A stretch of DNA of 27,615 nt from a virus (Duplodnaviria > Heunggongvirae > Uroviricota > Caudoviricetes): IMG/VR virus record IMGVR_UViG_3300045996_003062, positions 69,551-97,165 of that record; one strand, written 5' to 3'. A program made the position numbers and the translations under genes. The notes beneath the pieces were generated by a model. That model was not told the DNA's origin, searched no databases, and worked only from the letters and a program-made list of their open reading frames with translations. The number at the start of each line of letters is the position of its first letter. Position 1 is the first letter of the stretch. Positions 20,042 to 25,973 of the stretch are shown one piece after another.

Positions 20042-20226
20042 ACCGAGAGGCGGCGTTGATTCTGGCGAACTGGCGGCGGACCGAGACGCCCCACGGGGCG
20101 ATGCTGGACGAGATGCTGGCGCGCCTGAACCGGCAGGCGGAGGAGACGGTTGGCGCACTGTGGCCGCGGGCGCGTGCCATCCGTCCCGGTCTTTTGCTCC
20201 ACCGCCGCGGGAAGGATGACGCGTGA
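20038..20226 (+). CDS. Hypothetical protein (62 aa)
   Basis: GTGA coupling on both sides; GGAGGG RBS. Confidence 0.65.
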   Translation: MNREAALILANWRRTETPHGAMLDEMLARLNRQAEETVGALWPRARAIRPGLLLHRRGKDDA

Positions 20227-21725
20227 CAACACGATCCGTCGGGAAGGCGACGACGCTACACCTCGGGGACTGCCGCGACGTCCTCCGCTCCATGCCAGAC
20301 AACAGCGTGGACGCGGTGGTGACGGATCCGCCCTACGGCCTCAACTCCGAACTTTCCCCCAAGGAGCTGGCGGGGATGCTCGCCGCGTGGTCTGCGGGGG
20401 AGCCCTGGCAGCGAAAGGGCGGCGGGTTCATGGGACGGGAGTGGGATTCGAGCGTCCCCGGCCCCGACGTCTGGCGCGAGGTGTTCCGGGTGTTGAAGCC
20501 CGGCGGCCACGCCCTCGTCTTCGCGGGGACGCGGACCTACGACTTGATGGTGCTGGCGCTACGGCTGGCGGGGTTTGAATGTCGCGACTGCCTGGCCTAC
20601 CACTTCGCTTCGGGATTCCCGAAATCGCTGGACGTGAGCGCCGCGCTGGACCGGAGGGCAGGTGCGAAGCGGGAGGTCGTTGGGCCGAATCCTACATGGC
20701 GGGATGCGAAGCGCGACAACCGCATCATGCGCCCCGTTTCCGGTGATGGGGCGAAATGGATCACGGCGCCCGCATCCGAGTCCGCCCGCCAGTGGGAAGG
20801 ATTTGGGACGTCTCTCAAGCCCGCCTTTGAGCCCATCGCCCTCGTACGGAAGCCACTGGCGGGAACGGTTGCTGAGAACGTCCTGTCCTACGGAACAGGA
20901 GCGCTGAACATCGGAGGATGCAGGATCGGAACTACGAAGGATGTGCCTGCGTCGCCAGCCAAGGCGCGCATCAACATCGCCAAGGGGGCCGAGCGCGACC
21001 GTGCGGCGGACACCTCCGGTTACAACCCGGACGTCGGCCGCTGGCCTGCCAATGTCCTGCTGGGAGACTCTGAGGTAGCGGAGATGCTGGATGCGCAGGC
21101 GGGGGAACGGCCTGGGGTGGGCAAGCCTCGCGTGCTACGCCGCGGACACAGTACCTCCAGCGGAATCGGCTACGGCTCCACTGCGGAGGGCGGCGCGGCA
21201 CCCGTAGGATTTCAAGACTCAAGCACGAACGCATCCCGGTTCTTCTTCACGGCGAAGCCCGCGAAGCGGGAGCGTCACCTCGGATGCCGTGACCTGTACT
21301 GGCGCCGAGATAAGTCGTCACCGACGGGCGTGGTCCGCGTATCCCGCGAGGAGTGGGAAGCTCTGCCGGAAGCGGAGCAGGCGCACGGGAATATCCACCC
21401 CACCGTGAAGCCGCTGTCCGCGATGCGGTGGCTGGTCCGCCTCGTCACCCCACCGGGCGGGACGGTGCTGGACCCGTTCGTGGGAAGCGGCACGACGGCG
21501 ATGGCGTGCGAGGCGGAAGGGTTCGAGTGCGTGGCCGTGGACCTGTACGCCGACCACCTGGACGTGGCGGCCTGCCGGATCGGTTCGGTGCACGAGCTGG
21601 GGGAGAAGCGACCCCCGATTGCGAAGGCCAAGCGCGAGGTCGCGCCGCCGCCCACACCAACCGTGCCGCGGCCGGACGTGGCCCCTCGCGTGCTCGACCT
21701 GTTCAGTATGGACGAAGCGGCGTGA
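20223..21725 (+). CDS. DNA N6-adenine/N4-cytosine methyltransferase, beta group (500 aa)
   Basis: GDC..VL, VTDPPY (motif IV) N-terminal; HPTVKP and LDPFVGSGTT (motif I) C-terminal. Confidence 0.95.
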   Translation: MTTRSVGKATTLHLGDCRDVLRSMPDNSVDAVVTDPPYGLNSELSPKELAGMLAAWSAGEPWQRKGGGFMGREWDSSVPGPDVWREVFRVLKPGGHALVFAGTRTYDLMVLALRLAGFECRDCLAYHFASGFPKSLDVSAALDRRAGAKREVVGPNPTWRDAKRDNRIMRPVSGDGAKWITAPASESARQWEGFGTSLKPAFEPIALVRKPLAGTVAENVLSYGTGALNIGGCRIGTTKDVPASPAKARINIAKGAERDRAADTSGYNPDVGRWPANVLLGDSEVAEMLDAQAGERPGVGKPRVLRRGHSTSSGIGYGSTAEGGAAPVGFQDSSTNASRFFFTAKPAKRERHLGCRDLYWRRDKSSPTGVVRVSREEWEALPEAEQAHGNIHPTVKPLSAMRWLVRLVTPPGGTVLDPFVGSGTTAMACEAEGFECVAVDLYADHLDVAACRIGSVHELGEKRPPIAKAKREVAPPPTPTVPRPDVAPRVLDLFSMDEAA

Positions 21726-21741: not shown

Positions 21742-21770
21742 TTCCTCCGCACCTGTGTTCGGCTTATCTT
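21742..21770 (+). promoter_or_regulatory. Candidate promoter for the ncRNA
   Basis: TTCCTC-N17-TATCTT; the -10 is identical to that of PL2, the -35 is weak; predicted +1 near 21777 coincides with the first base of a long hairpin. Confidence 0.4.
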
Positions 21771-21776
21771 TGGTGC

Positions 21777-22500
21777 GCGGGACTCGCACCGGCATCAGCG
21801 CCGGAGAGCGCGGTCCTGCTTGGCTGGACTGGTGCCGCCGGTCTCCGAACTCCGCAACGTGCTTGCGGGTGCCGTCTCTCAGGAGACGGATAGGAACCGG
21901 GGCGCTTCCGGGTCTGAGGCCGGCCCCTGCCGGATAGGACTCACGTCGCCCCTTCGGGGGGCTTTCGCTGGGTGGGGGGATCGCGAGCGCGTGCGCAAGC
22001 GAGACGAGGACGGAAAGGGCCTGTGCACGCTCAGGTTCCCACCTGGGCGGCGGGGGATGGCGGACGCGCTTCAGCGCTGCCGCTGGCTACGGGGCCGGGC
22101 CGGGGACCGATTCGGCAAGCCCAAGGTGATACCGGCGCAGGGTTGCCGGAGAGAGGGTGCGAATCCCTCCCCCGTACCTGAGTCTGAGACGGCGCCAGTC
22201 GCCGGGGTAGGACTCACCCGGGCACGCTTCGGCGGAGCCCTCTGTGGCAGGAACGGCGGTTCAGGACTGGGCTTACCCGGTCGCCGCTGAAGGTGTGGGC
22301 GGGACGCCGCCCGTGCCGACCTCTCGCTGGTGGTGGAATGGGGATTCCCGTTCGCGGCGAGAGCGGCCACGTCGTGAGGACGTCGCCAGTACCCGGATGG
22401 AGCTCCGCGCCGTTTACAGGGCTGGGGCGCCATCCCACGCGGAACGGCCACGCGCCGGCCGCTGATCCTACGGCCGTCTCCTCACGGGGGCGGCCGTAGT
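21777..22500 (+). ncRNA. Putative giant structured ncRNA (~725 nt), unassigned
   Basis: No coupled or RBS-bearing ORF; more than 12 hairpins with UUCG and GNRA loops; long-range helix 21822-21845/22186-22203; G-T wobbles favour the + strand; ends in a 14-bp hairpin. Confidence 0.65.
22088..22177 (+). other. tRNA-like cloverleaf inside the putative ncRNA
   Basis: 7-bp acceptor-like stem TACGGGG/CCCCGTA, T-arm GAGGG-TGCGAAT-CCCTC, GGGC/GCCC arm, CCGGC/GCCGG arm with 8-nt loop; no CCA and no canonical anticodon loop. Confidence 0.5.
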
Positions 22501-23011: not shown

Positions 23012-23212
23012 TCACTTGTCCATGAACGCCAGGAGGATTCGAGCGGTCCGCCCCAGCTCCCGCCGACCCGCTTCGGCATTCCGCCAGAGTCCGGCGTCTA
23101 CGCCCGTAGCCGCCGCCGCGTCGCGCGAGCTCCACCCGCGCCGCTCCCGCCACTCGCGGAGGGCTTCCCCGCTCCCCGGACCCTCCGCAGGATCGGGGCG
23201 GACCTTCCTCAC
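23012..23212 (-). CDS. XRE/Cro-like HTH protein (66 aa; alternative start 23221)
   Basis: GEALREWRERRGWSSRDAAAATGVDAGLWRNAEAGRR; GTGA overlap with the ibrB stop. Confidence 0.75.
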   Translation of the reverse strand: MRKVRPDPAEGPGSGEALREWRERRGWSSRDAAAATGVDAGLWRNAEAGRRELGRTARILLAFMDK

Positions 23213-23883
23213 TTGCCCCACATCTCCTCCCGCGCCGTCTGATCGATCTCCCATGCCTCTGAGAACTCCCGGTCGGCGAACATCTCCGCGAGGCCGGTGA
23301 TCTGCTTCAGCCGCAGCACCTCGTCGCGGTCCATGCCCAGCTCCTTGGCGATCCGCTCCTCCGACCACATGCGGCGAGTGAGTTCGCGCACGATGTCGGA
23401 CATCGCGTCGACGCCGTGCTTCCCGCGCGCCCGGTTGTGCCGGATCGTCGCGGCGATCCGGTCCGCGCGGTCCGTCCGCCCCGCCTGGATCGTCGTGACC
23501 GGCAGGTATCCGTGGACCCGCTCGCGCACCGCCGGCACCTCGCGGCCCACGCGGTTGCGGTGGAAGCCGTCGACCACCTCCCGACCGCCTTCCACCGCGT
23601 GTGTCACGATCGGCTGGGTGTAGCCGTCCGCCTCGATGGAGTGCGCGAGTAGCCGCATCTCCGGGGGCGCCACCGTGTTCGGGTTGTAGTCGTTCGCCAC
23701 CACCTCTTCGGCCGCAACCCAGAGCACGCAGTCCACGGGTTCGGCGCGGAACGGGCTCGTCTCGTGGAGCGAAAGACGGATGGCATTCAGCGCCTCCACG
23801 CGGGCGGCGAGCGGGAGCGTTGCGAGGTCAGCGGCGAGGGCGCGTCCGCGCTCCACCATCTCGACTGCGAGTAGGTCAAGCAC
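23209..23883 (-). CDS. ibrB: IbrB/YbdM-like ParB-Srx domain protein (224 aa)
   Basis: EPVDCVLWV, ANDYNPN.VAPPEM.LL..SI..DGYTQPIV, VDGFHR, ATIRHNRARGKH. Confidence 0.92.
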   Translation of the reverse strand: MLDLLAVEMVERGRALAADLATLPLAARVEALNAIRLSLHETSPFRAEPVDCVLWVAAEEVVANDYNPNTVAPPEMRLLAHSIEADGYTQPIVTHAVEGGREVVDGFHRNRVGREVPAVRERVHGYLPVTTIQAGRTDRADRIAATIRHNRARGKHGVDAMSDIVRELTRRMWSEERIAKELGMDRDEVLRLKQITGLAEMFADREFSEAWEIDQTAREEMWGK

Positions 23884-24343
23884 GGTCTGCGATCTCCTTC
23901 CGGTAGTAGGTCCACGATCCGCGCTCCTGCGACGGTGCGAAACCGTGGCGCAGGAACACGGTGCGGATGAAGTCGGTGCGGGTGGCGCCTCGCACCTCCC
24001 GCGGTCGAAGCTCCAGCGCGAGCGCGAGCCGCAGATCGAACATCCGCGCGTAGATACCGCGGCGACGGTGGGCGGGGACGACGTACATGAAGTCCAGCGT
24101 CACGACGCCGGCCGTCGCGACGCGGCCGGCATGAAAGGAGCCCAGCCCGACGACCCGGCCCTCGCTCCGCACGACGACCCATATCGTGTCGGCGCTGTCG
24201 AACCACGGCCCGCCGAGCTCCGTTGCCACATCGCGGCTCGCGAAGAACGGGCCGGTGTCCGCCCAGAACTCGCGTCCCCTCTCCGCCGAGGACTCGCGGG
24301 TGTACGTGTAGCCGCCCTCGACCGCGAGTACCCGCGGACTCAC
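23876..24343 (-). CDS. GNAT-family acetyltransferase (155 aa)
   Basis: MYVVPAHRRRGIY acetyl-CoA motif A and F.RHGF motif B; GTGA coupled to the ibrA stop. Confidence 0.85.
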   Translation of the reverse strand: MSPRVLAVEGGYTYTRESSAERGREFWADTGPFFASRDVATELGGPWFDSADTIWVVVRSEGRVVGLGSFHAGRVATAGVVTLDFMYVVPAHRRRGIYARMFDLRLALALELRPREVRGATRTDFIRTVFLRHGFAPSQERGSWTYYRKEIADRA

Positions 24344-25557
24344 ACGATCCCCCACGCCGCCCTCCGCTTCTTCATCAGCTTCTTGTAGGCGTCGTACGCC
24401 GCCGTCTTCGTCGGACTGAACGAGAGCGCCTTGCACCAGTAGTCGTTCCGAAGGAGCACCTTGCAGATCCGTCTCCAGCTCGGCACGTCCTTGCTGCCCG
24501 TGTCCCCGTCCTGTGCGTCCGGGATGCCGCGCGCGTACAGGTGGCCGTAGTGCGTGGTGCAGTAGCGGACGTAGACGGCGATCTTGTTCCGGTAGTGCTC
24601 CGCCGTCGGGGGTGGCATCGTAGCCAGGAGCAGTTCCGCGAACGATCGGTACGTGTGCCCCTCCGGCAGGGTGATCTGCTGGTTGCCCAGGATGTTGCCC
24701 GCCTCCTTCGCGTACAGCGCCGCCGAGTTGGCGCCCGCCACGCGCGCCACCACCCGCCCCCACGTCTCCGGCTCCACGAGGTGGAACAGCCACAGGCCCC
24801 GGCGTTGCTCGTCCCCGTAGGGCTCACAGATCCGCATCGTGTGGAGTGGCACGCCCGCCTGGTGCATCCGGTCGTAGAGGCGGTTGTACGGCAGGCGCTC
24901 GCGCCCCAGGTACGTCCAGATGTCCTCGGTGCGCCAGTCGTAGATGGGATACGCGTTGTAGGTGGAGCCGCCCGGAATCCACGTCGTCCATCCCAGCCCC
25001 TCGTGCGTGCGCTTGGTTTCGTGGGCGATGGTCCGGAACCGATGCAGGGACTCGTCGCTCCGAATCCCGATCATCGCTGCGGTGAGCGCCGTTCCTCCGT
25101 ACCACGCGGCGAACGCCGGGACGAACTCCTCGAAGGTCATTGCAGGGCGGTAGAACGGGAACGCCCGCTCGTCCGTGATCGCGTCCGGCGGCGGCTGTCG
25201 CACCCATTCCTTACCCGGTTCCCAGCACGTCCACTCCGGTTCGTGCATGCTGCACGCGTTCGTCGTCCGCAGGGGGAGAGCGACCCAGTAAGGATCCGCC
25301 ACGTCGGCGTGCAGCGTCAGGCACTCGCGCACGTGCTCGATCGTGAGGGTGAACTGCGCCTCCCAGTCGATGAACAGCACGCCGATCCGGCGACCGCGGC
25401 GCCGTGCCTCGTCCGCGGTCAGATGGAATAGGACCGTGCTGTCCTTCCCACCGCTGAACGACACGTACACCAGCTCGAACTCATCGAACACCCGCGCGAT
25501 CCGATCCCTCGCGGCTGCGAGCACGTCGACGCCGATCCCGCGCTTCAGCCGAGACAC
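24340..25557 (-). CDS. ibrA: IbrA/YbdN-like PAPS-reductase-family protein (DUF3440 type, 405 aa)
   Basis: PP-loop SFSGGKDS, FIDWEAQ, GIRSDESL.R, YPIYDW, MRICEPYG, WRRICK.LL.NDYWCK.LSF. Confidence 0.93.
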   Translation of the reverse strand: MSRLKRGIGVDVLAAARDRIARVFDEFELVYVSFSGGKDSTVLFHLTADEARRRGRRIGVLFIDWEAQFTLTIEHVRECLTLHADVADPYWVALPLRTTNACSMHEPEWTCWEPGKEWVRQPPPDAITDERAFPFYRPAMTFEEFVPAFAAWYGGTALTAAMIGIRSDESLHRFRTIAHETKRTHEGLGWTTWIPGGSTYNAYPIYDWRTEDIWTYLGRERLPYNRLYDRMHQAGVPLHTMRICEPYGDEQRRGLWLFHLVEPETWGRVVARVAGANSAALYAKEAGNILGNQQITLPEGHTYRSFAELLLATMPPPTAEHYRNKIAVYVRYCTTHYGHLYARGIPDAQDGDTGSKDVPSWRRICKVLLRNDYWCKALSFSPTKTAAYDAYKKLMKKRRAAWGIV

Positions 25558-25973
25558 GCCGTCACCTCCGCCTCGGTGATCTCCTCGATCCGGCCATCCG
25601 CGACCCGGCAGAAGTAGCGCCGCTCGCGGCCGTGGCTGATAAGGTCGTTCACCTCGTACAGCTTCCCGGCGCGGAGCGTGTAGATCATGTACACCCCGCG
25701 GGCCCCGAGGCCCCGCACGCCCGTCGTGTCGCGCTGTCCGTGGACGGGCGTGCGGGTCGGCCGCCCATCCACGACGGGGGCTCCGACCTCCGCCACCCAC
25801 GGATGCCGGAGCGGACGGTAGAGGTTCTTCGCGACGCGGGGAGGCGGTCGCTGGTCCCGGTGCTTCCGGAAATGCGGCACAGCCACCCGCAGGTCGTCGC
25901 CGATCGCCTCCAGGCGAATCGTGGCCGTCTGCGTCGCCCGCGGCGGAGTCAGGCGAACCCCGGGCGTCGTCAC
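25545..25973 (-). CDS. Conserved phage protein of the type found beside ibrAB (142 aa)
   Basis: GTGA coupling; WVAE...G.RGVY..Y.L..G..YEV...RYFC.V pattern (recalled). Confidence 0.8.
   Translation of the reverse strand: MTTPGVRLTPPRATQTATIRLEAIGDDLRVAVPHFRKHRDQRPPPRVAKNLYRPLRHPWVAEVGAPVVDGRPTRTPVHGQRDTTGVRGLGARGVYMIYTLRAGKLYEVNDLISHGRERRYFCRVADGRIEEITEAEVTACLG

Follow-up and report, generated by a model that had tools for sequence, protein, structure and literature searches.

Phage RNAs that resemble tRNAs, and whose function is unknown, have been on record for a long time (T5 RNA1, RNA2 and RNAX), mostly without a clear ancestor. In the T5 record (AY543070), where such RNAs are labelled 'stable RNAs with unknown functions', RNA1, RNA2, RNA3 and RNAX are tRNA-shaped and lack a normal anticodon arm, and RNAX, with 719 nt, holds an internal acceptor/T module. 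The GOLLD RNAs are large phage RNAs with a tRNA-like part mid-way, and tRNAs lie inside the linker of some of them (bioRxiv 10.1101/2024.12.08.627333; PMC12990946). In YrlA, a T-arm and an acceptor-like stem of 7 bp belong to a tRNA mimic that RNase P can cleave in M. smegmatis (PMC4201824), and the eukaryotic mascRNA and menRNA are uncharged tRNA-shaped units at the 3' end of an RNA, which is processed by their excision. Theta ribozymes (PMC10879173) are small motifs that sit right at the 3' end of phage tRNAs and have the double-pseudoknot order of the HDV ribozyme.

Here we compare these systems with a tRNA mimic inside a non-coding phage RNA of about 725 nt (Table 1). The stretch of DNA analysed, called the window below, has 27,615 nt and is the final 27.6 kb of a complete, GC-rich 97,165-bp phage record with direct terminal repeats. 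Like T5 RNAX, the RNA has an internal acceptor/T module; the T5 RNAs are found within a tRNA cluster, whereas this one stands behind a DNA methyltransferase gene, far from the tRNA genes of the phage. With GOLLD it shares its large size, the mid-way position of the tRNA-like part and one small junction motif of the 5' domain, whereas the internal tRNAs of our GOLLD controls are near-normal. The resemblance to YrlA lies in the T-arm and the acceptor-like stem, and that to mascRNA and menRNA, which are unrelated in sequence, would be one of processing by excision if our best reading is right, as an analogy only. The tRNA-fMet genes of Caulobacter phage CcrSC and Xanthomonas phage DoCa5 are similar in sequence, whereas the mimic is embedded in a longer RNA and has A2-U71, G55 and no CCA. 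A motif that we call module A is placed behind the mimic much as theta ribozymes are behind tRNAs, without their double pseudoknot. The mimic is one of the phage tRNA-like stable RNAs, a known if loose kind, and is neither a mascRNA nor a YrlA. New are an origin traceable to tRNA-fMet, with compensation in the stems, the surrounding RNA, which is unclassified, and module A; in a literature search that covered few subscription journals, nothing was found on the three in combination.

Table 1. Features of the non-coding RNA and its tRNA mimic (window positions)
Feature	Position	Strand	Remarks
Possible promoter	21742..21770	+	TATCTT -10 box, poor -35 box
Non-coding RNA, about 725 nt	21777..22499	+	No Rfam family; ends inferred
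Three-way-junction motif	21845..21894	+	Resembles DUF3800-IX and part of one GOLLD 5' domain
Second, weaker module A copy, no tRNA ahead	21910..21944	+	Model score by construction
tRNA mimic, positions 1-73, most likely from initiator tRNA-fMet	22088..22177	+	Stems, alignment
Acceptor stem, 5' strand	22088..22094	+	U1-A72; A2-U71 replaces initiator G2-C71
D-arm, 4-bp stem	22097..22122	+	G11-C24 replaces A11-U24; GG at 22114-15
Link from D-arm to anticodon arm, lengthened, 9 nt	22123..22131	+	tRNA has position 26 and pair 27-43
Anticodon-arm equivalent	22132..22149	+	Stem kept; C29-G41 altered on both sides; alignment to three tRNA-fMet
T-arm	22153..22169	+	Stem matches two phage tRNA-fMet throughout; G55 in the loop
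Acceptor 3' strand, C73, then CTG in place of CCA	22170..22180	+	Sequence
Module A, uncatalogued phage RNA motif	22180..22221	+	Outer stem, internal loop, hairpin, tail
Terminator-like hairpin, 14 bp, weak U tail	22468..22499	+	Read from sequence

The phage has a lambda-type portal and a capsid fused to a protease, and a weak lead points to Gemmatimonadota as its host. It carries six tRNA genes (Thr, Ser, Ser, Glu, Leu and Gln), none of them a CAU tRNA, and encodes an RNA ligase of the T4 Rnl1 type. The ligase and a metallophosphoesterase, likewise encoded by the phage (L006:12136-13389 and L005:17444-18217; L numbers denote fetched loci), are possibly a tRNA repair set. The mimic lies in a gap between the DNA methyltransferase gene (20223-21725, + strand) and convergent genes. 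Frames across this gap have a flat GC content by codon position, without the third-position bias of true phage genes (GC3 0.81-0.90), and the gap is therefore non-coding. Beyond it, ParB-like, acetyltransferase-like and PAPS-reductase-like genes (23209-25800, - strand) form a cassette convergent on the RNA.

That the RNA is read from the + strand is suggested by G-U pairs in the terminal hairpin and by UUCG loops. Its -10 box also occurs at another promoter-like site of the phage; a scan for promoters and terminators called neither at the ends of the RNA. No Rfam family reached threshold in the window or in its sub-regions. The three-way-junction motif scores 24.5 bits with DUF3800-IX, below the cut-off of 36.8, and is listed together with L004:192-281 (- strand). 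When other phage RNA strings were compared for further modules in common, matching words on the same strand did not outnumber those on the opposite strand.

The initial annotation had described a 7-bp acceptor stem stacked on a T-arm with a 5-bp stem and a 7-nt loop, two further arms completing a cloverleaf, and no CCA. All four stems are present on the + strand: the acceptor (22088-94/22170-76) and the T-arm (22153-69) have the tRNA geometry described, the GGGC/GCCC arm (22097-100/22119-22) has an 18-nt loop, and the CCGGC/GCCGG arm (22132-36/22145-49) has an 8-nt loop and could form a sixth, G-U pair. CTG is found at 22178-80, where a tRNA would have CCA. Chance does not explain the acceptor/T geometry. 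A search for a perfect 7-bp stem stacked on a perfect 5-bp T-arm whose loop differs from TTCGAAT by at most one base gave one match in the window and none in 200 dinucleotide shuffles; in the rest of the 97-kb genome, the only match was a true tRNA-Ser. tRNA-like structures are defined by full or partial tRNA shape and by being substrates of RNase P, RNase Z, the CCA enzyme or a synthetase (PMC10424219); the mimic is predicted to be able to adopt such a shape. It scores below the thresholds of tRNA models, its Rfam matches being sub-threshold only (tRNA-Sec, 17.7 bits against a cut-off of 47). Relaxed ARAGORN, proposed earlier as a check, does call the mimic, only at a threshold of 80, where the window yields 65 calls.

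Most likely, judging from alignments, the mimic is a remodelled initiator tRNA. When its 3' half was used to BLAST-search cultured phages, only weak matches were returned (E 0.6-8), two of them to tRNA-fMet. Over a comparison set of 39 acceptor, D-stem and T-arm positions, the mimic is identical to the tRNA-fMet of phage CcrSC (MH588547.2:149056-149132) at 33 and to that of phage DoCa5 (ON932079.1) at 31, scores that are inflated because both tRNAs were found with the mimic's 3' half. (The DoCa5 tRNA-fMet, at L258:853-928, is without annotation in its record.) A chromosomal initiator tRNA, found with a tRNA query and not with the mimic, is therefore a fairer test, and it agrees at 29 of 39; the other 158 tRNAs of the fetched loci reach at most 26, and the mean of all 159 is 17.7 (sd 3.6). 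The CcrSC likeness is spread over the acceptor (12/14), D-stem (6/8) and T-arm (15/17), and in the MAFFT alignment the third hairpin of the mimic falls on the anticodon arm, with 7 of 10 stem positions identical. U1-A72 and C73 are shared with the CcrSC tRNA, and the run from C3-G70 to G7-C66 and a purine 11-pyrimidine 24 pair are as in tRNA-fMet. A class II ancestry, raised by a Leu call from ARAGORN, was set aside; global alignment scores for Leu and fMet are about equal and alone cannot separate them, and stem identity position by position favours fMet.

In the stems, compared with tRNA-fMet, G2-C71 has become A2-U71, A11-U24 has become G11-C24 and U29-A41 has become C29-G41, with one unpaired change at position 27, so that six of the seven stem substitutions relative to CcrSC make up three compensating pairs. 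Since G2-C71 and A11-U24 occur in 3/3 of the tRNA-fMet compared, their replacements go beyond ordinary initiator variation in this sample. The proposal of a tRNA mimic within a larger non-coding RNA accordingly holds, each of its stems mapping onto an initiator tRNA stem with compensating changes. The unpaired parts have been rebuilt: positions 8-9 differ, the D-loop has 18 nt instead of 8-9 (nine extra bases), about 8 extra nt precede the anticodon arm, the variable region has 3 nt, and CTG replaces CCA. The anticodon loop is longer than the 7 nt of a tRNA, and U33 and CAU are gone. An initiator is identified by an unpaired 1-72, G2-C71, A11-U24 and three G-C pairs in the anticodon stem; the mimic has a paired U1-A72, A2-U71, G11-C24 and C29-G41. 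Features for decoding and charging (anticodon loop, U33, G2-C71, CCA) have thus been lost while the helices are still paired, and by established tRNA biology the mimic would escape methionylation, formylation and use in initiation.

The T-loop of the mimic has G55, which is also present in real phage tRNAs and in two-piece tmRNAs and is therefore no defect as such. Among the tRNAs in loci L001-L257, a set enriched for G55 by the search pattern, AG at D-loop positions 18-19 occurs in 19 of 26 G55 phage tRNAs vs 0 of 120 with U55; by eye, the acceptor pieces of two-piece tmRNAs show the same covariation. The mimic combines G55 with the GG of its ancestor, without the usual A18, and G19-C56 pairing is possible. 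Its elbow may therefore be weak, loose or otherwise arranged.

The cloverleaf is not the thermodynamic optimum (-33.4 vs -41.5 kcal/mol, z-score -0.7); with the acceptor and T-arm enforced, the best fold (-40.3) combines a D-like arm of 3 bp with a long arm of 8 bp. Folding programs thus favour another lower half than that of the cloverleaf, and energies leave this half ambiguous. Another register, which would place an anticodon remnant at 22125-33, is possible, although it folds worse (-29.3). When the whole RNA is folded, pair probabilities are low (acceptor 0.09, T stem 0.36); enforcing the acceptor and T-arm costs only 1.2 kcal/mol.

Module A begins two bases past position 73 of the mimic. 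Its parts are an outer stem of 6 bp, an internal loop (UGA/UAG), a hairpin that varies and an ANCCG tail that is conserved. A relaxed pattern of a T-loop and a downstream stem led to L035 and L038, in which a true tRNA-Arg is followed by the window's motif. The motif starts after N73 and CT in the window and behind the tRNA-Arg of L035, and after N73 and CCT behind a tRNA-Tyr in L055. Genuine tRNAs thus precede module A in two other phage lineages with a spacing that is the same or one base longer, and the mimic accordingly stands where the tRNA would be in a unit of tRNA and trailer. In wider scans the motif turned up in about 13 independent contexts, and there is no tRNA ahead of most copies (about 11/13 other independent contexts).

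Judged by sequence comparison, module A is a real motif. The outer stem was forced by the search pattern, so its pairing gives no evidence; the inner hairpin covaries (0/500 shuffles as strong), and the ANCCG tail, absent from the first search pattern, is present in 7 of 83 unforced matches vs about 0.3 expected. It has no match in Rfam, and 401 genomes of one phylum yielded no copy. A theta- or HDV-like ribozyme is not indicated: by inspection, the alignment shows no nested double pseudoknot with a catalytic C, and there is no match to an Rfam ribozyme. The loci (L035:4587, L055:2134, L077:8964, L111, L050, L129, L132-L135, L139, L143, L145, L146 and L017/L018) place it behind tRNAs, within RNA strings and in 3' regions of genes, and nearly all of its hairpin loops start with C. 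At L077:8400-9100 and L111:8100-8700 (- strand), promoter-led structured RNAs stand directly behind a methyltransferase-like gene, in the gene order of the window; that the methyltransferase is of the same kind was judged by eye. At L145:300-890 (- strand), module A heads an RNA string with another anticodon-less tRNA-shaped element and then real tRNAs, and a shortened tmRNA-like gene (L035:5837-5962, 36.5 bits) lies near the unit of tRNA-Arg and module A.

No homolog of the mimic itself was returned by BLAST on phages and plasmids, by pattern searches of viral, metagenome and genome contigs, or by a shape descriptor of the long-arm fold run over 2.19 Mb of loci. The RNA is absent from phage relatives identified by their portal (26-40% identity), and the proteins next to it either are singletons or reach no more than about 50% identity over their length. 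The analogies first drawn with YrlA, tmRNA and mascRNA do not amount to membership: neither the YrlA nor the tmRNA model matches, and the order of the arms is that of an ordinary tRNA. The complete phage genome, to which this search was confined, has no Ro60/TROVE gene of the kind expected with a YrlA Y RNA, and against tmRNA there are also C3-G70 instead of G3-U70 and the missing CCA. T5 RNAX was rejected for want of alignable sequence and of a 5'-proximal tRNA arm (one pairwise alignment), and a profile of eight phage mimics of the tRNA-Leu upper half matches only the T-arm and not the Leu-type D-arm (E 1.1). Other elements were seen along the way: a family of phage RNAs shaped like tRNA-Leu, in which the T-loop has G55 and the anticodon is missing (L129:1542-1648, L158, L161, L199, L224, L239, L242), the L129 member about 420 nt upstream of module A; a promoter-led RNA with two T-arm-like modules with UGCGAAU loops (L030:4350-4680); and an unannotated acceptor/T-arm-like element in the right-end non-coding region of the cluster A mycobacteriophage Alma (L259:760-830).

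For the role of the mimic, the reading we prefer, at a probability of about 50%, is a tRNA-shaped processing signal at which RNase P and a 3' nuclease would split the transcript. A phage initiator-tRNA gene and its trailer motif would have been built into a promoter-to-terminator string of RNA modules, an origin that appears well supported, and would have dropped decoding and charging features while the helices stayed paired. Host tRNA-maturation enzymes would read the 12-bp acceptor/T helix, with a cut by RNase P between 22087 and 22088 and one by RNase Z or another endonuclease just past 22177. Three products are predicted, with about 310 nt for the 5' RNA, 90 nt for the mimic and about 320 nt for the 3' RNA, which module A would head, so that the mimic would be punctuation for an RNA cassette and not a tRNA. 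A 7-bp acceptor stem is a major determinant for RNase P (PMC4201824), and precursors without CCA are cleaved by RNase Z behind the discriminator, N73 (PMC10424219). We infer transcription, folding in vivo and cleavage of this RNA; the 3' trailer motif lends the processing signal indirect support. The missing CCA and the C at position 74 would lower the efficiency of RNase P and RNase Z. The low pair probabilities in the whole RNA, the possibly weak elbow, the lack of a mimic homolog in our searches and the absence of a tRNA ahead of most module A copies may also be held against this reading.

It is unlikely, in our estimate, that the mimic stays uncut and serves a single 725-nt RNA as a domain for folding or docking, its T-loop making tertiary or intermolecular contacts. 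GOLLD carries internal tRNAs, and the three-way-junction pattern from the 5' part matched a GOLLD (L014, which has an internal tRNA-Cys) in its 5' domain; CCA is absent and G55 is without its usual partner, and long-range complementarity spans the mimic (21827-37 with 22190-200; 22050-62 with 22428-40). Two ACTGG and two CCAGT words (21827-21837, 22190-22200, 22266-22271, 22385-22390) also allow alternative or pseudoknot pairings across it. However, the conserved 3' domain of GOLLD (RF02032) is lacking, and three known GOLLD controls score 165-216 bits where the window gives no match; the Rfam model of ROOL does not match either. As a whole, the RNA has only a modest folding advantage over shuffles (z -2.0), and the presence of free module A copies in many unrelated settings speaks for a series of independent parts.

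Improbable, too, is a decoy, released or embedded, that would bind host defence proteins directed at tRNA and so shield the real tRNAs during infection. Six tRNA genes and a T4 Rnl1-type ligase would fit a conflict over tRNA, the acceptor and T helices are contact sites of shape-reading proteins, and such a role is compatible with processing. The suggestion of a decoy for anticodon nucleases is nevertheless weakened, since the anticodon loop that they read is the most altered and least tRNA-like part; toxins directed at the tail would find no CCA. Least credible of all is a tRNA-fMet pseudogene in decay, passed on with its trailer and now without function: the mimic is a singleton with several insertions in a phage without an intact CAU tRNA, but all its pairs are Watson-Crick (acceptor 7/7, T 5/5, D 4/4) and its changes are paired, and seven random substitutions over 21 pairs would give three complete pairs with a probability of about 0.002, a figure calculated by hand that precedes any requirement for restored pairing and is only indicative, CcrSC being a relative and not the ancestor.

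With the processing signal as the preferred reading, it is possible, if doubtful, that the 725-nt RNA is one of a group of undescribed modular phage RNA cassettes, in which retired tRNA genes would serve as cut sites that free small structured RNAs, such as module A, to act against host defences or regulators. For the phage tRNA-like RNAs as a whole, the value of this example is that its ancestor is identifiable and each change can be assigned to a position. What is kept of a tRNA once a phage drops decoding is, in this case, the helices, and not the anticodon or the CCA. In addition, the search has exposed a conserved phage RNA motif outside Rfam, module A, and the locus, although it is one genome, offers a cheap test for 'tRNA punctuation' in phage non-coding RNA cassettes.
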